Positions 8,763 to 61,028 of a stretch of 64,000 nt of DNA are shown here, piece after piece (position 1 is the stretch's first letter; every line of letters begins with the position of its first letter). Origin of the DNA: an uncultured Candidatus Saccharibacteria bacterium. GTDB taxonomy: Bacteria; Patescibacteriota; WWE3; UBA101185; UBA10185. The notes under the pieces are model-generated. The model did not search any database and had not been told where the DNA came from. It worked only from the letters and a program-made list of their open reading frames with translations. The stretch covers positions 250,583 through 314,582 of the forward strand of contig CAYLMU010000002.1 in the NCBI GenBank assembly GCA_964385105.1, written 5' to 3'. Made by a program: the position numbers and the translations under genes.

Positions 8763-10031
8763 TTATTCCCTAATTACAACCTCAGCCACGCCATTCTCTT
8801 CTAACACATCAATCTCCTTATATTCAGGCAACACTGCGCTTCTAAACCACAATTTTTCGTTATTTATAGTGTATAAAACATGAGGAAGCTCATTATCAAG
8901 CTCTGTAAAAGTTTGTGATGCAATATTATATGTGTAAAACCTGGAATCCCCTAAATATAGATAAAGTGATGAATCGGTTTTTTCAACAATCCTCGGGGAC
9001 GTCTCTATTTCAAACGTTTGTAACTCAGCCAGTCTTTTTCCAAATAAGTCATAAACAACATAAGAATAAATATTTTCCAAACGACCGGGATTTTCTTCAT
9101 CAAACCTGATTCTATTGTTATATCCAAGCAAAGATTCGTTATTTATAAAAGCAGTTGCAAATTCACCTCCGGCAGCATATCCATTTTCAAAAGTTGAGAC
9201 TTTTCTTCCCGATTCAATGTCTAAAATAAATTGTGTGCTACCCTCAAGACATCCTTTAGTAATTAATAAAAGTTTTGAGTTTGGGCTTATATCGTCAACG
9301 TAATGGCTTGCACATAAATCATTATATCTAACCAAAAAAAAGTCTTTTATTTCTTGGCTTTCAAGTGTATAAACTCTTATACCATTTGAAGTAATTATTA
9401 ACTGCTTGTCATCAGGAGTAAACGATAAATCACGGAGTTGCATTTCAGTATTAACATTACTTATTCGATAAGCAAGTTTTGTTTCATCTGTTACAAAATC
9501 TTTAATGTAAACAGCATTTCCCCGCTTATTAACAAATAATTCATCTATGCCGGGCATAAAATCACTTTCAAGAATTGAATATGCAATTTTTGTTTTATCA
9601 TTACTTATTGCAAAATACAAAATATCCTCATCTGCCGACAATATAGTTGATATTTTACCGTCATCAACATTTAACATATATATATCGCCATTTTTAATGT
9701 AATAAAAAACTTTGTCTTTATTTAGCATTAACAAAGCTCTGGCATAAGCAGCACAAAATTTGTTCTCACAGGATTTATCAAATTTTTCTATAGGTAAGTC
9801 AACCTTTGCATTTTTTTCTACTGAATATGATGTTATTGGTGCAGCAGCAGTAATTTCAGAAGTATTAATTTCTTTGTTGCTGACATATCTTGAGTAAGCC
9901 ATTGAGATTAAAACTCCGGCTATTACTGCAATTAATAATGTTACACGGGCAATTCCTCGGTTAGTCACTGTTTTATTGTAACGGTAGTGCGTGGTTTTTA
10001 AAAGGTTTTTAAATGAATTCTGCCACAACAA
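8763..10031 (-). CDS. membrane-anchored beta-propeller (TolB/WD40-like) protein
   Basis: N-terminal TM anchor; repeated beta-strand-rich ~40-aa units with YxxxxDG-like turns; last gene of sortase operon. Confidence 0.4.
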   Translation of the reverse strand: MLWQNSFKNLLKTTHYRYNKTVTNRGIARVTLLIAVIAGVLISMAYSRYVSNKEINTSEITAAAPITSYSVEKNAKVDLPIEKFDKSCENKFCAAYARALLMLNKDKVFYYIKNGDIYMLNVDDGKISTILSADEDILYFAISNDKTKIAYSILESDFMPGIDELFVNKRGNAVYIKDFVTDETKLAYRISNVNTEMQLRDLSFTPDDKQLIITSNGIRVYTLESQEIKDFFLVRYNDLCASHYVDDISPNSKLLLITKGCLEGSTQFILDIESGRKVSTFENGYAAGGEFATAFINNESLLGYNNRIRFDEENPGRLENIYSYVVYDLFGKRLAELQTFEIETSPRIVEKTDSSLYLYLGDSRFYTYNIASQTFTELDNELPHVLYTINNEKLWFRSAVLPEYKEIDVLEENGVAEVVIRE

Positions 10032-10545
10032 CCAAACGCTTAGAGTCCATAAAACCGGTGCAAGTGTATAAAGTCAAAATCTTTCCCTCTCTGTCATTTA
10101 AAATGTGCGTCTGGTCGGGGGTTACAACAAATTTATCTTTTATAATAAATTTTCGTATATCTCCGTTAGAAAGCTTAATTGATATTTCATCCCCATTTTT
10201 AATATCATTCAAATTTTTAAGTAAATTTGGCCAATTGTGTCCATAAAAAACACTATTTCCTTCATCACCTGGCAAAACGGTGTCTTTTAAATAGGCTATA
10301 CCATCAGATGTAACCTCCCACTCATGGTTTGTAATCGATGTCTGAATTACCGGTAGACTGACATTTATAGCAGGAATTTCAATGGATACAGGCATAATTT
10401 CACTTGAAACCGTTGTGCCGGTATTAAAATTATAGTAAGAAAATTTTATTTGTCTGTTACGCTGATTAATTAAGTAAAGTGTATATGAAAAACTCAACAG
10501 TGAAGTCACACTCAAAATCACTGTTAAGATTCTTATCTTGTTCAT
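10009..10545 (-). CDS. sortase family transpeptidase (class E-like)
   Basis: N-terminal TM anchor, conserved His region (FYGHNWPNL), TLxTC catalytic motif (LTLYTCTG), downstream conserved Arg. Confidence 0.7.
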   Translation of the reverse strand: MNKIRILTVILSVTSLLSFSYTLYLINQRNRQIKFSYYNFNTGTTVSSEIMPVSIEIPAINVSLPVIQTSITNHEWEVTSDGIAYLKDTVLPGDEGNSVFYGHNWPNLLKNLNDIKNGDEISIKLSNGDIRKFIIKDKFVVTPDQTHILNDREGKILTLYTCTGFMDSKRLVVVAEFI

Positions 10546-11168
10546 TTTCGGCTTTTTAGTTTTAGAATTGCAGCTGAAAGCCCTGATACCATAGCAATAG
10601 CCCCTGATGCATATATTAAAGCTGCATCACCTGTTGAAGCTAAGCCTAAAGTGCCACCTCTAACAGTAGATATAGCTCTTGCTAAAATTTCACCATCATC
10701 GTCGTCATCATCTTTTTTAGTGCTTGTACCTCCGGTACCACCTGTTTCACAACTTAAAGTTAAGTTAAACGCCATAAACGGGTCTCGGCTTAAACCCCAT
10801 ACCGAACCGTCGGGAATGTAAATCCATCCCTGGTCTGTTAAATATTCAATTGCATCAATACTTAAACTTGAAACTTTCCACCAGTTAGTCTGAATTCCTC
10901 TTCCATTAGGTGCACAAAAACATTGAACAACTGTTGTGTCAGATAAGGTGTAAACTGTATCTCTTCCTGTGTAAACCCGTGTGTCACCGGGAATTCCATG
11001 AGTACCTTCGCTATAGCTTACTTTTATTGTTCCTTGTGGATTATTACATGTAGGAAATGTGGGTATTACAAAATCATCATTAACTGATTGTGCAAATGAA
11101 GTATTTTGTGACAATAAAGCACAAATTACTATAAAAAGTATTAGATTAATATATTTCCTGCTTTTCAT
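10542..11168 (-). CDS. sortase-anchored surface protein with LAxTG-type sorting signal (LASTG)
   Basis: Signal peptide (MKSRKYINLILFIVICALLSQNTSFAQS); poly-Asp linker; C-terminal LASTG + hydrophobic segment + KSRK tail. Confidence 0.65.
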   Translation of the reverse strand: MKSRKYINLILFIVICALLSQNTSFAQSVNDDFVIPTFPTCNNPQGTIKVSYSEGTHGIPGDTRVYTGRDTVYTLSDTTVVQCFCAPNGRGIQTNWWKVSSLSIDAIEYLTDQGWIYIPDGSVWGLSRDPFMAFNLTLSCETGGTGGTSTKKDDDDDDGEILARAISTVRGGTLGLASTGDAALIYASGAIAMVSGLSAAILKLKSRK

Positions 11169-19016: not shown

Positions 19017-22000
19017 TTACTCAGTGCTTTTAACTAAATTGAAACGAAATCTTGGTTGAACAACGGCTTTTTTTGCTTCTTTTATTTCAATATAGGTCTG
19101 AATACATTCGGCAAAGTTATTTGAAATCCTATTCCAGTCAAAGTTTTCAGCCCAACTTAATGAATTTTTTTCATACTTAGCTCTTAATTCATCATCAATA
19201 AGTATTTTTTTGATAGCCTTAGAAAATGCTTTACTATTTCCAACTTCTACAGTAATACCGGTATATTTGTTTTTTACCGAATCAACCAACCCTGGAACTC
19301 GTGAAGCAACAACCGGTGTACCACATGCGTTTGCTTCCAGAACCGAAATGCCCCATCCTTCCATTGTTGATGGTTGTACAAAGACCCAAGCGCTCGATAA
19401 AAGTTTAATCTTTTCATCATCACTCACCCTACCTAAAAATTTCACGTTATTTTCAAGGTTTAACTCCTTTACCAATACTTCAAGGCGTTTTCTGCTCTCA
19501 CCAAAACCTGCAATCTTAACCTCTATATACGGCATAGTTTTTGCAAGATTTCGTGTGGCATATATTAGTGTTTCAAGTGATTTATATGGTTTTAAACGCC
19601 CTAAGTATAAAATTGACGGATTGACTGTTTTTGGACCGGGTTTTAAGTCGTTTAAGTCAACTCCAGGACTCATAATAATAATGTTGGAGTTTCTACCAAA
19701 TCCAATTCGTTCCATATCACTTTTGGATGAATTGGAAACTGTAACCATTTGAACATTTCTGTATACAAATGGCATAATTTTTGATTCTAATTGCTTGGCT
19801 ATAAACGCAACAGGCCATGAAGTAATGGGTAATTTTAGCTGTTTAAAAATTATTTCACTGTGAACATGGTGAACAAGACCAATAACCGGAGTTCGGGTAT
19901 AAAGTGGTGCAAAAAACGGAACTCCGTTTTCACTGTCAATTATAATGTCGTATTTGCTTCTAAACTTAAAAATGTAGTAGAAAAATGCCCAAATATAAAC
20001 TGTATAAAAACCGCCCCGTCTAACTACGTTAACTCCTTCTACTTGCTCGTTTCTTGTGTTTTTTCCGTCATTGCCGCAAAAAAGTGTTACATCATGACCA
20101 TCTTTAACCCATCTCTTTGCTAACTCATGAACATATACTTCAGCACCGCCTGCCCATACATGTTTTGTATCACGCCAATTCAAAATTAAAATGTTTAGCT
20201 TTCCGTCAGCTTTATAATCTACGTGTGCATATGCCGGTTGTGAATATTTTGGTAGCAAATCCAAAATGTCATGAGAAACTTCAATGAATTTTTCTTTAAA
20301 AGTGTGAAGTATTGCAACAGCAACCAAAAAGAATGCACCGCTTAAGATCATGACATTAACAACATGTGAAATATTTGCATGAAAAACATATAAACCAACA
20401 CTTTGCACTATAACAGTGAGAATCCCCGGAATTGCAAAAATATATTCTCTTCTTGCGTGATAATAAGTTACTACAGCATAAGCAACAGAAAAGAACATCA
20501 TAGCAAACGAAAATCTTATTAAATAAGGCAATATGGGCAATGCTTTTTCACCAAATAAAATCGGTATAGTTATGCTTCCTGCCAAACCTACTATAATAAA
20601 GGCAACAAAAGTTGAACTTACAATTGCAAGTAAAATCTTTTTAAATGCTACAGAAGTTTTTGAACCTGCACCTGCATCTTTGCTGACTATAGGAATAATA
20701 AATTGAGCAAACATGCTTCCAATCATATATACCATACGTCCAACAAGAATTAACAAGGCATACTGACCTGCCTCAATAGCACTTAAATAATGCTTTACAA
20801 AAATCAAGTCAAGACTCAAAAATGTCACAGCTGATAATTTGGTTAAAACGGCTGTTGTAAAAAATTTCTTTGATAATTTAAGATTTTCAGGTTTTTCAGG
20901 TTCTTGCTCTGTACGCGGTAACGCGGACCTAGCAATTCTTGCAGCTATTACCCATCCAACAACCATGGATACCAAAATTGAAATCGGTAAAGCTGTATAA
21001 ACCCACTCGCCCATATTAAATTGAACAAAAACAACAGAAAAAGCTAATTTAACGAATGCGCTAATTACAACCAAAAGTGCTAAAGCATAAAATTTGTGGC
21101 TTCCTTCCAAAAAACCAGTGTTTACTGCCTGAATGAGCAAAAGAGTCCACATTGGTGCAAATACAATAAACGGTACTAAAGTGTGTGAATTAAAAAATGT
21201 TGAAAGAAGAGGTATTGATGCTATCCATCCCGCAACTAGAATCAATGAGATTTTGGTTAATTTGTTTCTATATGTGTACCAAATCTCACTTCTTAACGAA
21301 TTATACTTTCCAAATAAAAATGCCGTGTTATTAGAAATTGTTTGAGCAACTCCCGCGGCTGGTATTTGAGCTATAAACATAAAACTACTCAATAATGCAA
21401 TAAGACCAAATCCTTCTTCGCTCAGTGTTCTCCCAAGGTAAGCGCTTGTTAAAAAGTTTAAAACGTTGGCAACCATTGTTGCTGCAATAAGCGCTAAACC
21501 GGCTGAAACGGTTGTATCATATAAGTTTTTGATTGTTGCTGTAGATATAGCCGGTTTTACAGTCGGCAAAGAGACACGCGGAAACGCCAGTGTTGGCCTT
21601 GATATAAATGCAAGTTTTCGGCTTTTTTTTGTAATGTTAAGATGCAGCCCATGATGTGTTTTTTCCCAGTGGTGAGGTTTAAATATTAATTGCCAAAAAG
21701 CCATTACTGCTGCTATACTCATTAAAAACCAGTAAAAAGGCACAAAAAATACAAATTTAATAAGGTTATACTTTTCGCGTTTAGCCAGCCCAATCATGTA
21801 GTTGTAGATATACAAAAAGTTTCCAAATACGAGTGAAAACGCTGCCATATAAAACACAAGTGATGGAAACAAAGCTTCAATCGTCTCACCTACATATTCG
21901 TTGAATACAAAGTATGAAATTGTTGCAAGCCATAAAATCGGGTTAATTAAAATAAAGCTAATTCTTAATCCAATTATTAATTGAAAGATTAAAGCATGAA

Positions 22001-23774
22001 TACCTTGTTTTCTTAAAAATGCAAGCGGGTCTCGCATATGAACAAGATAAGTTTGCATATAACCCTTTAACCATCTAGATCTTTGTCTTATCCAGTTTTT
22101 GACATTACTATTTGCTTCTTCTAAAGTTGTTGAATCAATAATTGCGGTCTTGTAGCCTTCTTTAAATAACCTGGCGCCCAAATCACAATCTTCAGTAACA
22201 TTAAACGGATCCCATCCATGAAGGTCTTTTAAGTATTGAGCTTTAAAGTGATTGCTTGTACCTCCTAACGGAATTGTTGTTTCAATACTCTGCAAACCCG
22301 GCAAAATGATATCAAACCACAAAGTATATTCGGCAGTAAACATTCTTGTTAATAAGTTGTGGTGGGGATTATAATAATTTAGCTTTGCCTGAACACAAAT
22401 AATATCCTCAGGAAGATTTTTAAATGCTAAATAAGCTTTTTTAAGCTGTAAAGAATCGGGCATGTCTTCGGCATCATAAATAACCACATATTCACCTGAG
22501 GCCATTTTTAATCCATAATTGCATGCTTTTGGTTTAGTTTTTGGCATAGAATGCGGAACAACGACGGTTTTGAAATATTCAGGCAAATTAAGCTTTTCGG
22601 CGGCTTTAACTGTCACATCATCGTCTTCTTCGAGTAATAACAGAACTTCAAGTTTATCTTTTGGCCAGTCTAGGGCACTAATTGCCTCAACAAAATTTTT
22701 TAAAACCGCATCTTCTTTATATAAGGGACATAAAATTGTATATATGGGCAAATTTTCATCTGATAAGCTATTTAATTCATCGGTATTTGGCTGAATTTCA
22801 GGCGGGTGGCTTAAACTCTTTAAAATTAGATAAATATTGAACAATACGTCCAAAAAGTAAATTGCACTCAATATTGCTAAAATCCAGATTAAAGTTTTAA
22901 AAGGATAAAATATTAAACTAGCTATAAACAAGACGATAACTGCAGAAATTAAGAATTTTTGATCTCTTTTTAGTGTGTATAAAGCGGATTTATAATGTGG
23001 AAGATTTGTATGAGTTTTATAATGCTTTCCTTTGTACACTGTGCTATGAGAATCTGTATCGTTGTGAGCTATGTGAAAAACCCGTCTTACTGTAAGTTTA
23101 GTTTTAATTGCAGCTATAGCTAATGCCCAGGCTGTTTTTGCAAAATTTATATTAGACGACCCGTTAACTCTTAAAACATAGTCAATGTCAACCCCGCCTA
23201 TTTTGTAGCCCAATTCTTTTGCTGTATGAAGTAATGTAACATCGAGTGTCCATGGTGTTACATGCTCAACATTCATATGATTTGCAATTTCTCGCTTGAA
23301 AACTTTTAACCCAGATTGAGTATCACAGTTAAGTCCCAATAAAAATTTTCCAAAAATTAATTTGTTTAATCTTGAACCTGCTTTTCTTACAAAAGTACTT
23401 GAATAAGTTCGTCTGTTTGCAACAACAACCCCTAAATTATCGATATATGCTTTTTTCAACATTTCAGGCAGTACCTCAGGAGGATATTGAAGATCCCCGT
23501 CTATAAATGCGACATATTCTGTTATGGCTAATTGCAAACCTTCAATAATAGAATAGCCCTTACCTTGTATACCTTTTTTTGTATGAATTTTTATAGGAAA
23601 TTCTTTTGAAAGATTAGTTAATATTTTTACAGTGGCATCTTTTGAATTATCATCAACAAAAATCAGCGTAAAATCAATATTTGCAACATCCATTGCACCT
23701 GATAGGCGATTCACTAATTCATTCAAGTTTTTCTCTTCATTATAAACCGGTATAATAATATCTAGAGCTTTCAT
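19017..23774 (-). CDS. 1585-aa multidomain glycosylation protein: GT2 (DPM1-like) + processive GT2 synthase (QxxRW) + Wzx/MOP-like flippase domain + GT4
   Basis: N-term IIIPVYNEE...FVDDNSKD (GT2); second GT2 with YDAEDMPD, VTEDCD, QRSRW motifs; ~12 TM region with Wzx-like pattern (LLILVGRMVYMIGSMF); C-term GT4 with EGWGISVLEANACGTPVVAS; uninterrupted 4.7-kb ORF in AT-rich DNA. Confidence 0.8.
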   Translation of the reverse strand: MKALDIIIPVYNEEKNLNELVNRLSGAMDVANIDFTLIFVDDNSKDATVKILTNLSKEFPIKIHTKKGIQGKGYSIIEGLQLAITEYVAFIDGDLQYPPEVLPEMLKKAYIDNLGVVVANRRTYSSTFVRKAGSRLNKLIFGKFLLGLNCDTQSGLKVFKREIANHMNVEHVTPWTLDVTLLHTAKELGYKIGGVDIDYVLRVNGSSNINFAKTAWALAIAAIKTKLTVRRVFHIAHNDTDSHSTVYKGKHYKTHTNLPHYKSALYTLKRDQKFLISAVIVLFIASLIFYPFKTLIWILAILSAIYFLDVLFNIYLILKSLSHPPEIQPNTDELNSLSDENLPIYTILCPLYKEDAVLKNFVEAISALDWPKDKLEVLLLLEEDDDVTVKAAEKLNLPEYFKTVVVPHSMPKTKPKACNYGLKMASGEYVVIYDAEDMPDSLQLKKAYLAFKNLPEDIICVQAKLNYYNPHHNLLTRMFTAEYTLWFDIILPGLQSIETTIPLGGTSNHFKAQYLKDLHGWDPFNVTEDCDLGARLFKEGYKTAIIDSTTLEEANSNVKNWIRQRSRWLKGYMQTYLVHMRDPLAFLRKQGIHALIFQLIIGLRISFILINPILWLATISYFVFNEYVGETIEALFPSLVFYMAAFSLVFGNFLYIYNYMIGLAKREKYNLIKFVFFVPFYWFLMSIAAVMAFWQLIFKPHHWEKTHHGLHLNITKKSRKLAFISRPTLAFPRVSLPTVKPAISTATIKNLYDTTVSAGLALIAATMVANVLNFLTSAYLGRTLSEEGFGLIALLSSFMFIAQIPAAGVAQTISNNTAFLFGKYNSLRSEIWYTYRNKLTKISLILVAGWIASIPLLSTFFNSHTLVPFIVFAPMWTLLLIQAVNTGFLEGSHKFYALALLVVISAFVKLAFSVVFVQFNMGEWVYTALPISILVSMVVGWVIAARIARSALPRTEQEPEKPENLKLSKKFFTTAVLTKLSAVTFLSLDLIFVKHYLSAIEAGQYALLILVGRMVYMIGSMFAQFIIPIVSKDAGAGSKTSVAFKKILLAIVSSTFVAFIIVGLAGSITIPILFGEKALPILPYLIRFSFAMMFFSVAYAVVTYYHARREYIFAIPGILTVIVQSVGLYVFHANISHVVNVMILSGAFFLVAVAILHTFKEKFIEVSHDILDLLPKYSQPAYAHVDYKADGKLNILILNWRDTKHVWAGGAEVYVHELAKRWVKDGHDVTLFCGNDGKNTRNEQVEGVNVVRRGGFYTVYIWAFFYYIFKFRSKYDIIIDSENGVPFFAPLYTRTPVIGLVHHVHSEIIFKQLKLPITSWPVAFIAKQLESKIMPFVYRNVQMVTVSNSSKSDMERIGFGRNSNIIIMSPGVDLNDLKPGPKTVNPSILYLGRLKPYKSLETLIYATRNLAKTMPYIEVKIAGFGESRKRLEVLVKELNLENNVKFLGRVSDDEKIKLLSSAWVFVQPSTMEGWGISVLEANACGTPVVASRVPGLVDSVKNKYTGITVEVGNSKAFSKAIKKILIDDELRAKYEKNSLSWAENFDWNRISNNFAECIQTYIEIKEAKKAVVQPRFRFNLVKSTE

Positions 23775-51745: not shown

Positions 51746-52042
51746 TTGACTAAGTTATACGTAGGAAACTTACCCTATTCATATACTGAAGATAACCTTA
51801 GGACACTCTTTGCTGATTATGGCAACGTTAATAGTGCTACTATTATCATTGACAGAAACAGCGGAAGAAGTAAAGGATTCGGATTTGTTGAGTTGGAAGA
51901 TAGTTCTGCTGCAGAAACTGCTATTTCTGAATTAAATGGTAAAGACGTTGACGGAAGAAATATTGTAGTTAATGAAGCAAGACCTATGACCGACAGACCT
52001 CGAAGAAACTTTGATAACAACAGAGGTGGATACAACAGATAA
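51746..52042 (+). CDS. RRM-domain RNA-binding protein (TTG start)
   Basis: RNP-2 LYVGNL and RNP-1 KGFGFVE motifs; Gly/Arg-rich tail; GGTGG RBS 7 nt upstream of TTG. Confidence 0.85.
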   Translation: MTKLYVGNLPYSYTEDNLRTLFADYGNVNSATIIIDRNSGRSKGFGFVELEDSSAAETAISELNGKDVDGRNIVVNEARPMTDRPRRNFDNNRGGYNR

Positions 52043-52064
52043 TAAATAGGTTAATTTAAATTAG

Positions 52065-52092
52065 AAAGCCGGGGTTTAACCTCGGCTTTTTT
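52065..52092. terminator. bidirectional Rho-independent terminator between convergent genes
   Basis: Stem gccgggg/cctcggc with TTTTTT tract on plus strand and A-tract (T on minus) upstream. Confidence 0.45.
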
Positions 52093-52696
52093 ATGAGGAT
52101 TGTTCTTGCAGCAAGTTTTCAGTTTCCTCGCTATTTGTGTTATTTTCAGTGTTTTCAACTTCATTTAATGTAGTGTCTTCTTCGGTCACCTCCGGACTAT
52201 TGTTATTCTGCAACTCATTTTTTTGCGACTCATTTTTTTGCGGTTCTTCTTCTATAGAAAGCTCCCAAAGCTCTGTCCACTTTGAACATTTGCCGCTTTT
52301 CGTACATGATTTTACCCTCCACCAGACATCCTTATTTGAAAAATCTGTGATTTTGACATTATTTTTATTTAGCTTTCCTGACTTATGCATGATTTTCTTC
52401 ATATCTTTATCTTGGTATGATTCGTAATAATAAAAAACCTCCTCCCGACCTTCGCACGGTGAATTAACTGTCTTCCACTCAAAGTCTGGTTTTTCTTTCC
52501 ACTTTGATTTATTTGTGGATAGTTTGTTCTTCGGAGATTTTAACTGTGGTTGTTCCGGCTCAACAATACATCCGAACTCAATTTTATTTTCAGTTATAGT
52601 TACATCAGATTTGTAAAATGCACTTGTAATATTAACAAGTGTAAAACTGCCAACCAAAGCAACTATAAATATTCTTGATAAAGTTTTCAAATTCAT
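52091..52696 (-). CDS. secreted Cys-rich protein, last gene of SipW/TasA-like operon
   Basis: Signal peptide; 8 Cys in mature region; acidic C-terminus. Confidence 0.35.
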   Translation of the reverse strand: MNLKTLSRIFIVALVGSFTLVNITSAFYKSDVTITENKIEFGCIVEPEQPQLKSPKNKLSTNKSKWKEKPDFEWKTVNSPCEGREEVFYYYESYQDKDMKKIMHKSGKLNKNNVKITDFSNKDVWWRVKSCTKSGKCSKWTELWELSIEEEPQKNESQKNELQNNNSPEVTEEDTTLNEVENTENNTNSEETENLLQEQSS

Positions 52697-53256
52697 ATTG
52701 CTGTTTCTAATATAGATTCCTTCTTTTTACGTCTCCTTTCGATTATCTTTTTTAACTCATTTCTAATACTGATAATTTCACTATAAACTATGAGTGTCGA
52801 TGGAATAATTATAAGTGCAATTAAACCTAGCTGGGTTCTTGCAAAAACCACGGGATAACCCAATAAAGGCACACTAAATAAAACTTTACCTACAATCCGA
52901 TCTGCACTAATTAATTCTCCGTCAGGAGCATCATTAGCGTCCCCTTTTGTTCTAAACATCATTTCTCCGTCTTCACGTATTATTTCAAAAACTCTGTGAG
53001 TTGTAGTAGAAGCAGGATTGTCTAAGTTCGGGTCTGAATCCATTGTAAAGGTTATCACATCGCCTGCACTGTATACATCAACAGCTTTAACTGCAACTAT
53101 GCTGCCGGTTTTAATTGCAGGCTCCATAGAACCACTTTGAACAGTGTATAATTTATAACCTCCCGGTATGTCTAATATCGATGCAGCAACAACGCCTGCT
53201 GTAATAACTAGTAACAAGATTATGAAAATGTATAAAATATTAATAATGCTTTTCAT
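52693..53256 (-). CDS. sipW: signal peptidase I, archaeal/ER type (SipW-like)
   Basis: N-terminal TM, SGSMEP catalytic Ser motif, conserved His (TTHRV), GDAND motif, C-terminal TM anchor. Confidence 0.7.
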   Translation of the reverse strand: MKSIINILYIFIILLLVITAGVVAASILDIPGGYKLYTVQSGSMEPAIKTGSIVAVKAVDVYSAGDVITFTMDSDPNLDNPASTTTHRVFEIIREDGEMMFRTKGDANDAPDGELISADRIVGKVLFSVPLLGYPVVFARTQLGLIALIIIPSTLIVYSEIISIRNELKKIIERRRKKKESILETAI

Positions 53257-53326
53257 ACCTGCTCCTTGCTAATTGATATCTTAATAGCCCTCGCAAGTAC
53301 ACTTACAAGGGCTTTAAAACATCAAG

Positions 53327-53905
53327 TTAATTACTTCTTGCCTCTATAACAAAATCCCATGTTAATTCTGAACCCATCAAAGATCCTTGATCTGAACCAC
53401 TTTCGGGTAAGTACACGGTGTACCGCATATCCTGTGTGCTCCCAACAATCAATTCACTCCAATGCCCGGCAAACAAATCAACATCTATTAAATCCTCTAA
53501 CTTACCTTCATAAACGGTATGCTCCATTGCACCACTAAGTCTTCCTACTTCTATTCTAATCATTACTTTCTGCCATAACCCGGATCCATTGTCGTTTGCA
53601 TTTTCAACATTAAGCACTAAGCTTTTTGCGTCAACAGAACTTGGTCCTGCGAACCAGGGAGGGCCATAGTTTTGTAGTGCATATACCGGTGATACCGATC
53701 CGTCCTCGAATCCATCAACCGGAACAACTCCTGTGAATGTTGCACCAACTACAGTTGGCTCACCATTAACTCGTAATTCCAGTGCACCGGTTGATAGTGT
53801 ATTACCGGTGATTGTAGCTGTATCTGAGAAATATGCTCTGGTAGCACCAATACTTGATGCTGTCATCAGTGTAATTACTACTAGACTTAATATTATTTTT
53901 TTCAT
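53327..53905 (-). CDS. TasA/camelysin-like secreted protein with SipW-cognate class signal peptide
   Basis: N-terminus MKKIILSLVVITLMTASSIGATRAYFSDTATITGNTLSTGALEL matches SipW-cognate signal class (G-T-x-A-Y-F-S/T-D-T-x...N-x-F/L-x-x-G-x-L-x-L). Confidence 0.65.
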   Translation of the reverse strand: MKKIILSLVVITLMTASSIGATRAYFSDTATITGNTLSTGALELRVNGEPTVVGATFTGVVPVDGFEDGSVSPVYALQNYGPPWFAGPSSVDAKSLVLNVENANDNGSGLWQKVMIRIEVGRLSGAMEHTVYEGKLEDLIDVDLFAGHWSELIVGSTQDMRYTVYLPESGSDQGSLMGSELTWDFVIEARSN

Positions 53906-53949
53906 TTCTTCTCACCTCCCACCAGATTAATTTTATACAAATTCCTTAA

Positions 53950-54744
53950 TTAAGGAAGTGTTGCTTCTTGCTTTGCAATTTGAGCATTCATCCAACTTGT
54001 GTGATTAGATCCGGGTCCACTGAGTCTTGGCTGAGAACTAAACAATGCATCCAATGCACCAGAGTCAACCTGTGTTGCATGAACAGTGTATGATAAATCT
54101 AGTGATTTACCCATATAGGTGTTGTCAGCATCCGGATGCATAGCTAGCTTAAATGTAAATCGGTACTTAAAGTCGTCATTAGCTAACAACGATCCCATTT
54201 GAACACCTCCACCTGCTCCCATTGCATTAGCATTGTTCCAAGAATTAAGAGAGACTACTTGAAACGGTGTTGAGTTATTGGCAAGAGTTTGGTAATAGGA
54301 GTTCCATGAATGACCGTTAAGTCCTGACACATTACCTGTACCATTAAGAATAAACTGATCAGTACCAGTAGGTTCCCAATTTCCATTTGGCACAAGAAAT
54401 TCGGTTTTTGCTTCTTTGATATATATAGCATCACCAAGCGCTGCATCACCGGTTAAAGTAAAGTAAGCAACCCACCCAAGGTCAATATTTCCATCATTAA
54501 CTATTTCCACAGTAAAATCTGGGGTTTCTTCACCCGGCTCCAAAACCATATCTGGAAGCGTCCAAGTAAAGGTTTCTTCTGAAACTTCTTCTGTGCTACC
54601 GTTCACACTAACCGTAAATGAACCGGTTGATAAGGTTCTTACATCTCCCAATACTGCAGTGTCGGTTAAATATGCTCGGGTTGCACTAAATATAAGCCCT
54701 GAAGCACCAATTAACAAAGCAAAACTTAATAATAGTCTTTTCAT
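53950..54744 (-). CDS. TasA/camelysin-like secreted protein with SipW-cognate class signal peptide (larger paralog)
   Basis: N-terminus MKRLLLSFALLIGASGLIFSATRAYLTDTAVLGDVRTLSTGSFTV; beta-rich mature domain. Confidence 0.65.
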   Translation of the reverse strand: MKRLLLSFALLIGASGLIFSATRAYLTDTAVLGDVRTLSTGSFTVSVNGSTEEVSEETFTWTLPDMVLEPGEETPDFTVEIVNDGNIDLGWVAYFTLTGDAALGDAIYIKEAKTEFLVPNGNWEPTGTDQFILNGTGNVSGLNGHSWNSYYQTLANNSTPFQVVSLNSWNNANAMGAGGGVQMGSLLANDDFKYRFTFKLAMHPDADNTYMGKSLDLSYTVHATQVDSGALDALFSSQPRLSGPGSNHTSWMNAQIAKQEATLP

Positions 54745-55044
54745 TATTTTTCACCCCCTTTAGTCAAAAACAAGTACAAAAAAGCCAGCTTTTTAAAGAC
54801 TGGCATTAGTTTTTGTATATTAATTTTGTATTATTCTTCATAATTTGAATTAAGAATCCTAGTACGTAAACTGTGTTTCCGGAAAGAAAATACTCGATAG
54901 TCTAATACTATGAGATTGGTTACTACTTGTCAAATAGTCATAGATTTTAGAATTATTGATAAACCAACTAAATTAATTGTTTCATAGATCACAGATTTTA
55001 ATATTTCTTCGTCGTTATAATAAATTATTTCTGAGTAGTAATAT

Positions 55045-55568
55045 TTAAATTATAAATGTAGATTGAATTCCATAATGATCCGATATATAAACTTCTTTAT
55101 CCTTATAATGCACCGGCTGCGAAAAAACTGTTTCCTGTTTTATTAATGAATTCTTAAAACCCTTAAATAGTGTGTAATCATATCTTTTGTCACTTTTAAT
55201 CCATCTACGAGCAAGTGAACTTACGGTTGGATTATGCATATCAAATGTGATAGCGTCTTTTTCATATAATGGGTCATACAAATCTCCTCTGTGTCCTCAT
55301 GCCTCCATGTCTTGTCTTTTGTATTTAACGAATTTACTGTCTACCGGGGTATTATAATAAATTCTGAAGAACTTGTAATCCTATAGTTCATGGCACTTAC
55401 ATTGGTGTATTCGAACTGAGAGTTACATACTAAAAGTTTTGACATAAAAAAAAGACCATGCTTCTCTCGGGATTTCTCCTTTGATTGCATGGTCAAACTA
55501 AACCTAACAAACAAAACAAAGTCTAAGACACTGCTACAAGTTGCAACAACAGAGTGCCTTTCTAACAA
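55045..55568 (-). pseudogene. degraded endonuclease/exonuclease/phosphatase (EEP) family gene remnant
   Basis: C-terminal fragment 55045-55281 ends ...VYISDHYGIQSTFII (SDHxPV-type EEP terminus); upstream fragment MSKLLVCNSQFEY in another frame interrupted by stops. Confidence 0.35.
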
Positions 55569-55584
55569 AACTAACAGGATTGGT

Positions 55585-56211
55585 TTATATCATGCACCAA
55601 TCTGCTTCAGAGTCCTCGCCAAGGTAATCGATACAAGACTGCCGGAATGCCTGACGACGAAGCGTTTTCTCCCTTTCAATCAGTTCTTGCATCAACCACT
55701 TTTCGAAGCGGCTCAGAGTAGCCAAACCTTTGTCCCTGGAGATTAATCGATCAATGTCAGATACATAGCCAGAAAGGTACCCTACTTCTGTATGGAGCAG
55801 GCGAAGATACAACTTGCTGCCGTACTTGGTACCAGCGATCACAACGAGGAAGAAGTCTTTTATACCCATTTCGAGCACACCACGAAAGGTTCTATCGGAC
55901 TCCTTTTTCACGATCTTGATCAACTCGACAACGACAATTTGCAAGACACTCAAAAGAACCTTCAGTTTCGGAGGGGTTTCTACCGAATTCTTCTGGTATT
56001 TTCCAAGCGCTTGCAGTACCCGGGAATCTTCCTCAAGGGAATCCAACAACAGGTCGAAAGCTACATCGGCCTCCGAGGAACTTCCATCGTGATGCAACGC
56101 GACTAGTCTTCTGAGGATTTCAACCTCATTAGGATCTAGACCATAAATGGCTACTACACTATCAAACACTTTCTGGTTCATCACAACCTCCCTAATATAT
56201 ATAGTGTGCAA
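55585..56211 (-). CDS. hypothetical protein (208 aa), GC-rich island
   Basis: ORF in compositionally atypical DNA. Confidence 0.35.
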   Translation of the reverse strand: MHTIYIREVVMNQKVFDSVVAIYGLDPNEVEILRRLVALHHDGSSSEADVAFDLLLDSLEEDSRVLQALGKYQKNSVETPPKLKVLLSVLQIVVVELIKIVKKESDRTFRGVLEMGIKDFFLVVIAGTKYGSKLYLRLLHTEVGYLSGYVSDIDRLISRDKGLATLSRFEKWLMQELIEREKTLRRQAFRQSCIDYLGEDSEADWCMI

Positions 56212-56370: not shown

Positions 56371-56871
56371 TCAAGGATTGAAGTAAGCATCCCAAAACTC
56401 AGGATCATTTATCTGCTCTTCCCACCCCTCTAAACAATCGCACAAACCCATGTCTTTAAGGCACAGTTCACACTTTCCATAGTTTTCATCTCTGTCATAG
56501 GCCAAAGACCAAGGATGGTTTGCGGTATCTCTAAAGAGGTACCTAGTTAACCATTCTCTAACTTCCGGAGTAGAGTCGAACTTATCGCCTTTATTATAAA
56601 CTGTTTCTCGAGCGCCATCGAAATCGCCTAGCAAAAGCTGATGAGCAATATCTCTCGCAACCTGACTACCTCTTCCACTGTTAAGCGGCCCTTGCAGCTT
56701 ATGAAGCTCCTTAGACAGAAACCTCGGTGTAAGTTCAATCCAAAACCGCAAGTTTTCTTGTTCATGTATAAGTCCTATGCTGTGAAGAGCTGATTCCAAA
56801 TCTGGGCCTTCAATCTCTTCAATCTCTCCACTACGCCAAGTAAGCCGATATATAGGCATCACTTCCTCCAA
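56371..56871 (-). CDS. hypothetical protein (166 aa), GC-rich island
   Basis: ORF; C-terminal Cys cluster CELCLKDMGLCDC. Confidence 0.35.
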   Translation of the reverse strand: MEEVMPIYRLTWRSGEIEEIEGPDLESALHSIGLIHEQENLRFWIELTPRFLSKELHKLQGPLNSGRGSQVARDIAHQLLLGDFDGARETVYNKGDKFDSTPEVREWLTRYLFRDTANHPWSLAYDRDENYGKCELCLKDMGLCDCLEGWEEQINDPEFWDAYFNP

Positions 56872-56879
56872 AATTACAG

Positions 56880-57170
56880 CTAAAGTCGATAAACAGGATA
56901 AGATCCGGTGCGAATAGCGTATGCAACTTCAGGATCACTCGGATCAACAGGTGTGGCTATCACAGTGTCGACCACAAGTGCACGACACTTCCCACAGTCC
57001 CATTTTCTACCACCCAACTCATCTGTTGGAAGAACATCATTACTTCCACACGCTACATGGGTGAATACCACATAAATATGGTTGTAAACGGGAGAGTCAA
57101 GAACCTTCAGTAACTTATATGCGAAATCCTTGACCAATATCCTAACACGCCATTTAAGTAACTCTAGCAT
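56880..57170 (-). CDS. hypothetical protein (96 aa), possible zinc-ribbon (CGSND...CGKC)
   Basis: ORF with two Cys pairs. Confidence 0.3.
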   Translation of the reverse strand: MLELLKWRVRILVKDFAYKLLKVLDSPVYNHIYVVFTHVACGSNDVLPTDELGGRKWDCGKCRALVVDTVIATPVDPSDPEVAYAIRTGSYPVYRL

Positions 57171-57244
57171 TCCTATGCTCCTTGTTCGGTTTTTAATACG
57201 CAGTTATTATAATAAATTCTAGAGTGTTTGTAAACCTATAGTCT

Positions 57245-57320
57245 TGGGGTGACCGACGGGGATCGAACCCGTGACATCCGCCTCCACAGGGCGGCGTTCT
57301 ACCGCTGAACTACGGCCACC
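57245..57320 (-). tRNA. tRNA-His (anticodon GTG) with genomically encoded G-1
   Basis: Extra 5' G pairing with discriminator C73, D-stem GTTC/GAAC, anticodon loop CTGTGGA, T-loop TTCGATC, CCA encoded. Confidence 0.9.
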
Positions 57321-59497: not shown

Positions 59498-59572
59498 GGC
59501 CCCATCGTCTAGTGGTTAGGACATCAGGTTTTCATCCTGGTAACCGGGGTTCGATTCCCCGTGGGGTCACCA
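59498..59572 (+). tRNA. tRNA-Glu (anticodon TTC)
   Basis: Acceptor GGCCCCA/TGGGGTC, D-arm GTCTAGTGGTTAGGAC, anticodon loop TTTTCAT, T-loop TTCGATT, CCA encoded. Confidence 0.9.
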
Positions 59573-61028
59573 TAGTGGAATTTCCAACACTAACTAGTTC
59601 GTTTAGCTCTACAATACAGGATTTAACAGGAGTTGTTAAATTTCCATTCAAATATACAATTCCATCAGGAAATAGTATTTTTTGCAACTTGTGTTTTGGA
59701 ACAATATCTAACTTTTCCCATTTTTTAGTCATACCAGTTAAAAACTGTAAACTATAGTTTAGTAGCTCTTCAGTCAGTACACTTGGATGTGCATACTTTG
59801 TAGTCTCTAGGTTCAGGTCAACAAGTTCTTTTTCAAACTCTGCCAATTTACTTTTAGCTAACTTGTCGCTGTATACACCGTTTATATTCTTTTCAACTAC
59901 CTTATCCTGTAACTGTTTTATTTCAACCCTTCTTTTTTCAATTGAAAGTAACTCTTTCTCGTACTTTTTACGATGACTTTCCCAATTTAGTATAAGAGCC
60001 TCCTTAATGATGGAAATGGTCTTAGAATTGAAATTAAGTGCTTCTATGTAGGCTTTAAATATGGGTTCTACAATATTTTTATTGATGTTAATACCCCTAC
60101 AATCTGTACATCTATAATGCCCTTGATTCTTTTTAGCCCAACTTGCAGTCATATACTTACCACAATGACATCTTAATGTACCTCTTAGTGGAAAGTCAGG
60201 ATTTAGCTTTTTGTATACGGGTAGTTTCTTTTTCTTTCCATCTAATATAACCTGCACTTTGTCAAAAACCTCTGGTTTAACAATTGCTTTAAAACTACCC
60301 TTTTTATATACGCCCATACTAGGTACATCAATCCAACCCTTATATACGGGATTTCTTAGCATTTTGTGAAAGTGGGATGTTGTTAATGCTTTTCCATTCT
60401 TTTTTGTTAAGCCCCAGGACTTACCCAACTGTCTTACCTCTTCAACGGTATTGTACCTCCTGTATATACAATCAAAAACTTTTCTGATAGGTTTTTCTAA
60501 TTCAGATAATGGTTCAATGTTTGAACTACCTTTTTCTCCAACAGTTTTAAATCCATAAGGTGCTTGAAAAGTCCATCTACCTTGTTTTAGAGCTTCTATC
60601 ATTCCATTTTTACTCCTCTCGCCTCTTATCTCGTTATCTAACTGCGCAATACCCGAAAGTGTATGTTCAATAAACCTACCTAACGGATTATCTTCAATTG
60701 GTTCTGTTATAGAAATAATCTGTACTTTACATGAAGTAAAAAATGTTTTTAAGGTTGCGTAATCAAAGGAATCTCTAGATAAACGGTCAATCTTGTATAT
60801 TAGTAAAACATCAATTTTACCTTCATTAAGTTTGCAATACTTCATCATCTTTTTGAGTTGTGTTCTATCTACTGTCTTTGCACTTTCACCCTCTTCAACA
60901 AACACTTTATCAACTGAATAGCCATTATTTTTAGCATAGCTTTTACACAATCTCTCTTGGGAGGCTAAACTGTTACCTTCAAACGCTTGTTCTGTTGTGG
61001 ATACTCTACAGTATATTATGGCGTTCAT
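59532..61028 (-). CDS. large serine recombinase
   Basis: N-terminal IIYCRVSTTEQ...SLASQ (catalytic Ser), DRLSRD motif, recombinase domain, Cys cluster CHCGKY...YRCTDC; last 41 nt overlap tRNA-Glu 3' half (C-terminal GIEPR translated from T-arm). Confidence 0.85.
   Translation of the reverse strand: MNAIIYCRVSTTEQAFEGNSLASQERLCKSYAKNNGYSVDKVFVEEGESAKTVDRTQLKKMMKYCKLNEGKIDVLLIYKIDRLSRDSFDYATLKTFFTSCKVQIISITEPIEDNPLGRFIEHTLSGIAQLDNEIRGERSKNGMIEALKQGRWTFQAPYGFKTVGEKGSSNIEPLSELEKPIRKVFDCIYRRYNTVEEVRQLGKSWGLTKKNGKALTTSHFHKMLRNPVYKGWIDVPSMGVYKKGSFKAIVKPEVFDKVQVILDGKKKKLPVYKKLNPDFPLRGTLRCHCGKYMTASWAKKNQGHYRCTDCRGININKNIVEPIFKAYIEALNFNSKTISIIKEALILNWESHRKKYEKELLSIEKRRVEIKQLQDKVVEKNINGVYSDKLAKSKLAEFEKELVDLNLETTKYAHPSVLTEELLNYSLQFLTGMTKKWEKLDIVPKHKLQKILFPDGIVYLNGNLTTPVKSCIVELNELVSVGNSTMVTPRGIEPRLPG

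Follow-up and report, generated by a model that had tools for sequence, protein, structure and literature searches.

A putative TasA-type fibre operon with its own ER-type signal peptidase in a bacterium of the candidate phyla radiation

Background

Cultivated bacteria of the candidate phyla radiation (CPR) live attached to host cells, and we know of no structure other than type IV pili that has so far been tied to this attachment. Four adjacent genes on a contig of an uncultured Candidatus Saccharibacteria bacterium (CAYLMU010000002.1) raise the question of whether such organisms could also build extracellular fibres of the TasA type. The genes, here called P1 to P4, occupy the minus strand from 54744 to 52091 of a 64,000-nucleotide stretch of this contig, which is referred to below as the window. 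A preliminary description, made from the sequence of the window alone, had likened them to the tapA-sipW-tasA module of Bacillus subtilis. On the evidence presented here, it is fairly probable that P1 to P4 form one operon for a TasA-type extracellular fibre.

In the Bacillus system, TasA polymerises when the N-terminal strand of one mature protein enters the next subunit; TasA residues 28-47 form this donor strand, and the similar N-terminal sequence of TapA is predicted to complement TasA (PMC9674648). TapA speeds filament formation by donating its N-terminus, while its own Ig fold is complete, making a role past initiation unlikely (PMC10151520). The P2' residue of TasA is aromatic, and the signal peptidase that processes TasA is SipW; E. 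coli LepB cuts such sites poorly (PMC10269814).

Operon structure and a shared N-terminal signal

The earlier claim of four co-directional and tightly spaced genes is borne out by the open reading frames (ORFs). Read on the minus strand, these are P1 (53950..54744, 264 aa), P2 (53327..53905, 192 aa), P3 (52693..53256, 187 aa) and P4 (52091..52696, 201 aa), in this order. None of the four proteins has a source name on record. P1 and P2 are separated by 44 nt and P2 and P3 by 70 nt, and the start of P4 overlaps the stop of P3 by 4 nt (ATGA). Purine-rich, Shine-Dalgarno-like sequences are found upstream of P1, P2 and P3.

P1, P2 and P4 begin with related signals, reading ...SATRA↓YLTDTAVLGDVRTLSTGSFTVSV in P1, ...GATRA↓YFSDTATITGNTLSTGALELRV in P2 and, in degenerate form, ...NITSA↓FYKSDVTITENKIEFGC in P4, where the arrow marks the predicted cleavage site (after A24 in both P1, TRA↓YL, and P2, TRA↓YF). 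A profile built from the first 49 columns of the P2 family alignment was searched against every ORF of at least 50 aa in the window. Only three ORFs were matched, P2 (E 8e-29), P1 (E 2e-7) and, at E 0.002, P4; the best of the remaining ORFs was at E 1.1. The SipW-cognate signal class that had been assigned to P1 and P2 is therefore real, and since the profile selects only these three ORFs, it is also present in the fourth gene, a point absent from the preliminary description.

P1 and P2 are related to TasA and CalY

Matched as a single sequence, P2 scores 23.1 bits with PF12389 (Peptidase_M73; gathering threshold, GA, 22.5) over residues 3-189 of its 192, and 19.4 bits (cut-off 19) with TIGR04088, a model of the 34-residue signal and early mature region. 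P1 scores only 15.1 bits with PF12389, below threshold, and has no NCBIfam match; TIGR04088 does not reach E 1 for either P1 or P4. The proposed check against SipW-cognate and TasA-type models was thus passed by P2 and failed by P1, which is tied to the family in another way: the P1-family and P2-family profiles align with an hhalign probability of 99.5% (E 2e-22). In addition, a P1 homologue at 50% identity carries a precomputed PF12389 match. Sequence searches of the PDB with P1 and P2 gave chance-level matches or none.

At the family level, 19 relatives of P2 were found in a large protein collection, mostly with precomputed PF12389 matches, and TIGR04088 matches all 20 sequences of the resulting family. 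When this family was compared with Bacillaceae TasA/CalY proteins that are encoded immediately downstream of a sipW gene and match both NF046066 and TIGR04088, hhalign returned a probability of 99.3% (E 8e-21) over 174 columns. An N-terminal strand and a C-terminal D-Q-x-x-x-x-G-x-x-L-x-W motif are common to both sets, and are also the best-conserved parts of the P2 family. The TasA equivalog model NF046066 (cut-off 450 bits) has no match in P1 or P2 and only one, at E 0.005, among the 20 sequences of the P2 family. These comparisons place P1 and P2 in the TasA/CalY (PF12389) family as paralogues, each with a signal peptide of the SipW type; P2 is a family member and not an orthologue of B. 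subtilis TasA. P2 is the probable major fibre subunit.

The putative donor strand of P2 comprises residues 25-44 (YFSDTATITGNTLSTGALEL; 53774..53833, minus strand), as judged from family conservation and low confidence in the structural model. Y25, F26, N35, T36 and G40 are invariant in the 20-sequence alignment, and the low predicted local distance difference test (pLDDT) values of this segment in the monomer model are to be expected, because the strand would pair in trans. The corresponding segment of P1, also residues 25-44 (YLTDTAVLGDVRTLSTGSFT; 54613..54672, minus strand), aligns with the P2 family motif, and its putative role is taken from TasA. P1 differs from the P2 family by insertions and by a conserved C-terminal extension of ~35 aa in the homologue alignment. 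The extension (residues 227-264; 53950-54066) lies beyond the TasA-like core, has no counterpart in P2 and carries the P1-subfamily pattern G-A-L-D-x-L-F...R-L-x-x-x-G-x-N-H...W...Q-x-x-K-Q.

P1 and P2 could also be secreted without forming fibres, as monomeric or oligomeric matrix or coat proteins, or act as cell-surface proteases of the camelysin type. The name of the Pfam family, Peptidase_M73, would fit the latter, and TasA itself has a stable monomeric form; a Foldseek search with the P2 model gave nothing significant in the PDB, fibre structures included. The metalloprotease reading was nevertheless rejected, since neither P1 nor P2 has an HExxH motif, and the protease assignment of CalY is likely a misidentification (PMC11580942). 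Furthermore, conservation peaks at the N-terminal strand and the C-terminal motif, and in PF12389-type proteins the best-conserved residues are reported to sit in the protomer interface (PMC10151520). We therefore regard a non-fibrous role of P1 and P2 as improbable.

Two further candidate readings were tried and set aside. Proteins of this kind carry the Joint Genome Institute (JGI) name 'ribosomally synthesized peptide with SipW-like signal peptide', which does no more than reflect the TIGR04088 model. A ribosomally synthesized and post-translationally modified peptide (RiPP) was rejected because P1 and P2, at 190-260 aa, are folded proteins and no modification enzymes are encoded near them. 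Sortase dependence of P1, P2 and P4 was likewise rejected, as none of the three has a sorting motif or a C-terminal membrane segment.

P3 is an ER-type signal peptidase

The peptidase gene had been described as archaeal or endoplasmic reticulum (ER) type, and the model scores agree. P3 scores 112.5 bits (cut-off 51.85) with TIGR02228, the archaeal/ER-type model, and only 21.4 bits (cut-off 47) with TIGR02227, the bacterial P-type model, which speaks against a bacterial P-type enzyme. Neither this comparison nor that of P2 with the curated models refutes the preliminary description. The motifs SGSMEP (residues 41-46) and GDAN (residues 105-108, with Asp106) are present together with His87, and hydrophobic segments at ~1-33 and ~132-165 provide membrane segments at the N- and C-terminus. 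In a sequence search of the PDB, the only solved relatives were human SEC11C and SEC11A, with whose motifs the SGSMEP, the His of THRV and the GD.N of P3 align. With the Bacillus SipW equivalog model NF046067, P3 reaches 130.4 bits over residues 3-182, under the cut-off of 190.

On sequence grounds, P3 is accordingly classified as an ER/archaeal-type signal peptidase I, with a predicted Ser-His(-Asp) rather than Ser-Lys active site (for the catalytic dyad types behind the Ser-His assignment of SipW and SEC11, see PMC10269814). It is SipW-like, short of the status of a Bacillus SipW equivalog.

P4, a probable TapA-like accessory protein

The fourth protein had been called Cys-rich, which overstates its composition: it has four cysteines (C43, C81, C131 and C137), or 2.0% of its residues compared with 0.66% in the long ORFs of the window. 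A better description is that of a TapA-like accessory protein which combines a strand with an FN3 domain. The signal peptide, with predicted cleavage at TSA↓FY, is followed by a 17-residue donor-strand-like segment (residues 27-43; 52568..52618, minus strand), then by a complete FN3-type beta-sandwich (residues 45-150; 52247..52564, minus strand) and an acidic disordered tail. N37 of the segment aligns with the invariant N35 of P2, and in the predicted model the segment stands apart from the FN3 body and is of low confidence. Both C43 and C81 are invariant among 40 aligned relatives of the N-terminal type and probably form a disulfide. No Pfam, NCBIfam (TIGR04087 and TIGR04088 included) or PDB sequence match was found for P4.

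A word-indexed homologue search with P4 returned P4 alone, and the family surfaced only in an exhaustive HMMER search with residues 1-150, which gave 140 clusters in three groups. In the first, with at least 51 clusters, a signal peptide and the motif T-N-(A/S)↓(Y/F)-F-(S/T)-D...N-x-F-x-x-G-C-W-x-x-P-S-x-P precede the same domain. The second comprises 17 clusters of fusions, in which a SipW-like peptidase stands ahead of the P4-type region. The third, of ~50 clusters, consists of large surface proteins that repeat the domain.

In the fusions, the peptidase with its C-terminal membrane segment is followed by a short basic loop, then by a second hydrophobic segment that leads into the cleavage motif, and last by the FN3 domain. 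From this layout, the cleavage site would be placed at the outer face of the membrane beside the active site, which argues that P4-type proteins are both substrates and partners of the peptidase. Among the 40 aligned P4-type relatives, TIGR04088 matches 11, a lamin-tail domain occurs in 14 and bacterial Ig-like domains in 13, and a single one matches TIGR04087 (TapA, YqxM), at E 0.052. P4 is a minimal version of this family, with neither the lamin-tail domain nor the Trp that follows the invariant Cys. It meets the design of TapA (a SipW-type signal, a subunit-like N-terminal segment and a complete Ig-like domain), and is analogous, not homologous, to it.

The module recurs across CPR lineages

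A comparison with relatives, which the preliminary description had called for, showed the same module order in about 20 CPR loci: one or two TasA-like genes, the peptidase and a downstream gene. The nearest P2 relatives come from metagenome-assembled genomes (MAGs) labelled WWE3 (61% identity), Saccharibacteria, Moranbacteria, Andersenbacteria, Berkelbacteria, Shapirobacteria and 'Patescibacteria group'. Taken alone, these relatives would assign the window to the CPR. In Bacillaceae, P2 has matches over its full length at 24-28% identity, and the loci there have the peptidase upstream of the subunit. The downstream protein opens with a SipW-type motif in 14 of the CPR loci. When ten of these motif-bearing proteins were scanned, a lamin-tail domain was found in eight and a ConA-like lectin domain in one. 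Three of these proteins have a first domain that is homologous to P4.

This recurrence bears on a simpler explanation of P3, namely that it is the general signal peptidase of a reduced genome, lying beside secreted proteins by chance. A second signal peptidase was indeed not found within the window. However, the adjacency is kept in more than 20 loci of different CPR lineages and in Bacillaceae, 17 independent fusions join peptidase and P4-type region in one protein, and P3 and P4 are translationally coupled through the ATGA overlap. That the adjacency has no functional meaning is thus highly improbable, although general and dedicated roles of P3 are compatible with each other.

A few of the labels attached to these loci deserve caution. 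Four MAG contigs labelled 'uncultured Gammaproteobacteria' (L015, L017, L018 and L037) carry the CPR-type module; the strand-bearing downstream protein is present in L015, L018 and L037, and L017 ends inside the peptidase gene. The labels are doubtful because TasA homologues are nearly absent from Proteobacteria (PMC9245690). Similarly, a contig labelled 'Candidatus Bathyarchaeia archaeon' (L025) resembles one of Brevibacillus migulae (L028), with nearly the same ORF layout and near-identical displayed N-termini, which is probably the result of mis-binning or contamination of the archaeal MAG.

The module had been considered unexpected in a reduced, CPR-like genome. This was an overstatement, because it is found in many CPR lineages and because TasA homologues, including PF12389 proteins, have been known in Patescibacteria since an AnnoTree survey of 2022; TasA homologues and SipW-type peptidases outside the Firmicutes are likewise already known (PMC9245690). 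A full-text literature search found no paper that pairs TasA with 'candidate phyla radiation' in this sense, and TasA, SipW and signal peptidase go unmentioned in the CPR papers that were consulted. As far as could be found, what appears to be new is the CPR gene order, the strand-bearing FN3/lamin-tail accessory family and the accessory-peptidase fusions.

A model for fibre assembly

By analogy with TasA and TapA, the operon most likely makes donor-strand-exchange fibres that are primed or capped by P4. P3 would cleave P1 and P2 after T-R-A and P4 after T-S-A, before an aromatic pair or Y-L (A↓YF, A↓YL, A↓FY). A dedicated peptidase may be encoded because Ser-Lys peptidases of the LepB type would process this context poorly. 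Cleavage would release an N-terminal strand of ~20 residues on the mature subunits, and P2, probably together with P1, could then polymerise outside the cell by donor-strand exchange. P4 would present such a strand as well, its FN3 domain being complete and lacking an acceptor groove, such that, like TapA, it could donate to the first subunit and could not receive. It would therefore prime assembly and take up one of the two fibre ends, the tip as an adhesin or the cell-proximal end as an anchor. An adhesive role would fit the lamin-tail, Ig-like or lectin domains that larger orthologues have at the position of P4.

Several observations weigh against this model. P2 clears the curated thresholds by less than 1 bit, and P1 and P4 fall short of them; for P2, the weak single-sequence scores are offset by the strength of the family-level evidence. 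The P4 strand is degenerate, at 31% identity to the P1/P2 strand, and P4 has no Trp after Cys43, where one is nearly invariant in the family. P4 also has no membrane anchor or sorting signal by which a fibre could stay attached to the cell.

The same low identity of the strand, and the failure of P4 to match TIGR04088 and TIGR04087, would fit another possibility, that P4 acts on its own as a secreted adhesin or surface protein which shares the peptidase and the signal type and donates no strand, any fibres being self-nucleating. The N-terminal motif might then be a mere recognition element for the peptidase, and no role as initiator has been demonstrated for BsaC, a VWA-domain protein encoded fourth in the sipW-bsaA-bsaB-bsaC operon of C. 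perfringens (PMC11580942). Yet conservation runs ~17 residues past the cleavage site, through N37 and G42-C43, which exceeds what a peptidase would need, and the detached, low-confidence state of the segment in the model speaks against it as well. Across 14 loci, the 16-residue strand of the downstream protein was also slightly more similar to the subunit strand of its own locus than to those of other loci (BLOSUM62 score of 2.46 per position, compared with 2.13 between loci; permutation p 0.006), a small effect in a statistic that ignores phylogeny. With TapA as a precedent for the design (PMC10151520), we consider an independent adhesin unlikely and P4 as strand donor the better reading.

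In an epibiotic CPR cell, fibres of this kind would likely serve for attachment to a host or a surface. A broader possibility, which we put forward tentatively and hold to be somewhat less than an even chance, is that a second class of surface fibre, in addition to type IV pili, is widely shared among CPR/Patescibacteria. Such fibres would be of the TasA type, held together by donor strands, and a modular protein that unites strand and adhesin would prime them. This protein would have a donor strand at its N-terminus, a G-C-W hinge and FN3, lamin-tail or lectin domains; in some lineages it would be a self-cleaving fusion with its own ER-type peptidase, and the fibre end that carries it would bind host cells. 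If true, a second fibre type would be a concrete candidate for host or surface binding by CPR bacteria, and a testable one, because domains of the adhesion type are present in its variable end protein. Work on TasA could use the CPR loci as natural experiments in fibre initiation: the accessory proteins are unrelated to TapA yet built on the same principle, and the peptidase-accessory fusions physically link processing and priming.

Comparison with known fibre systems

The proposed resemblance to the B. subtilis tapA-sipW-tasA module stands for the parts and the design, and does not extend to the gene order or to homology between P4 and TapA. Both systems have the gene of an ER-type signal peptidase next to those of its known or, here, predicted substrates. 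In both, the subunit is a PF12389 protein with a TIGR04088-type signal and an aromatic residue just past the cleavage site, and the accessory protein joins a complete Ig-like fold to an N-terminal strand that resembles that of the subunit. The order here is subunits, peptidase and accessory protein, whereas in Bacillus it is accessory protein, peptidase and subunit. There are also two subunit paralogues here, and the equivalog models separate the two systems, P2 having no NF046066 match and P3 scoring 130 of the required 190 bits for SipW. Unlike TapA, P4 has an FN3-like body, with no TIGR04087 or PDB sequence match to indicate homology.

The closest system in gene content is the sipW-bsaA-bsaB-bsaC operon of C. 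perfringens. Its four genes encode one SipW, a pair of TasA-like paralogues and a further secreted protein that has an adhesion-type domain, and BsaA has been proposed to undergo donor-strand exchange (PMC11580942). In that operon, however, the peptidase comes first, and the adhesion-type domain of BsaC is the VWA domain, with no strand-like N-terminus reported. BsaA is locked by an Asn-Glu-Lys isopeptide, unlike the P2 family, for which no such lock is predicted because its alignment has no invariant or near-invariant Lys or Glu; the BsaA-type lock was rejected, as the triad is not conserved. TIGR04090, the model of the BsaA subfamily, does not match P2 and matches 3 of the 20 sequences of its family, weakly.

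In the bundling pili AbpA/AbpB of Pyrobaculum, the subunit has a jelly-roll like that of TasA and donor-strand complementation, both of which would be expected of P1 and P2, and a TapA-like protein encoded downstream has been proposed as initiator and adhesin (PMC9245690). The archaeal locus has no dedicated signal peptidase, and its similarity to TasA is far weaker than that of P2. Chaperone-usher pili (Fim/Pap) offer a parallel in principle, as one subunit is linked to the next by an N-terminal strand that enters an incomplete Ig-like fold, and specialised end subunits hold only one of the two interaction elements. There is no sequence relation, however, and no chaperone, usher or outer membrane would be involved here. 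P4 would be the opposite of the FimH tip adhesin, since it has the strand and no groove.

Flanking signals and genomic neighbourhood

Directly 3' of the P4 stop, in the 48-nt gap to a convergent gene, lies a terminator-like GC-rich hairpin with a U-run (52055..52089, minus strand), with the stem AAGCCGAGG/CCCCGGCUU followed by UUCUAAUUU. A simple consensus scan for terminators did not report it; it was revealed by folding against shuffled sequences (minimum free energy -13 kcal/mol, z -2.6). The convergent gene (51746-52042, plus strand) encodes a 98-aa RRM-type RNA-binding protein (RRM_1 in the contig annotation), and the hairpin appears to be a bidirectional terminator shared by the two transcription units. 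A weak promoter-like site (TTGACA, 17 nt spacer, TAGTAT; 54905..54933, minus strand) is situated ~160 nt upstream of P1. Such sites are not above chance in this region, 15 being found and 15.5 expected in shuffled sequence, so that the position alone is suggestive. The GC content of the operon, 0.37, is ordinary for the window and gives no signal of horizontal transfer.

The sequence directly upstream of the operon has features of a mobile element. A 38-nt direct repeat, 84% identical (55350-55387 and 57205-57242), brackets a 1.85-kb segment in the window's highest-GC part (0.40); of the two copies, the second directly adjoins the 3' end of a tRNA-His gene (57245-57319, minus strand). Within this segment, three orphan ORFs (55585-56211, 56371-56871 and 56880-57170) have no Pfam or PHROG matches. 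The repeat looks like the attachment-site (att) duplication of a small element inserted at the tRNA-His gene. Farther upstream, a large serine recombinase/integrase gene (59532-61028, minus strand; Resolvase, Recombinase and Zn ribbon domains; phrog_95, E 2e-73) overlaps with its 3' end a tRNA-Glu gene (59498-59572, plus strand), which suggests an integrated mobile element or its remnant.

Elsewhere in the window, a sortase gene (PF04203, E 8.5e-25; 10009-10545, minus strand) overlaps the gene of a 208-aa secreted protein (10542-11168, minus strand) that ends with LASTG, a hydrophobic segment and KLKSRK, a sorting signal, and large proteins with no Pfam match flank this pair. In four of the relatives' loci (L003-L006), the region immediately upstream of the TasA-like module encodes sortases and SpaA/SdrD_B-like proteins; here, the distance is 42 kb. 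Finally, a 1585-aa protein (19017-23774, minus strand) fuses GT2 and GT4 glycosyltransferase domains to a flippase-like polysaccharide-biosynthesis membrane domain, and its gene clusters with those of another GT4 glycosyltransferase and a PIG-L deacetylase.

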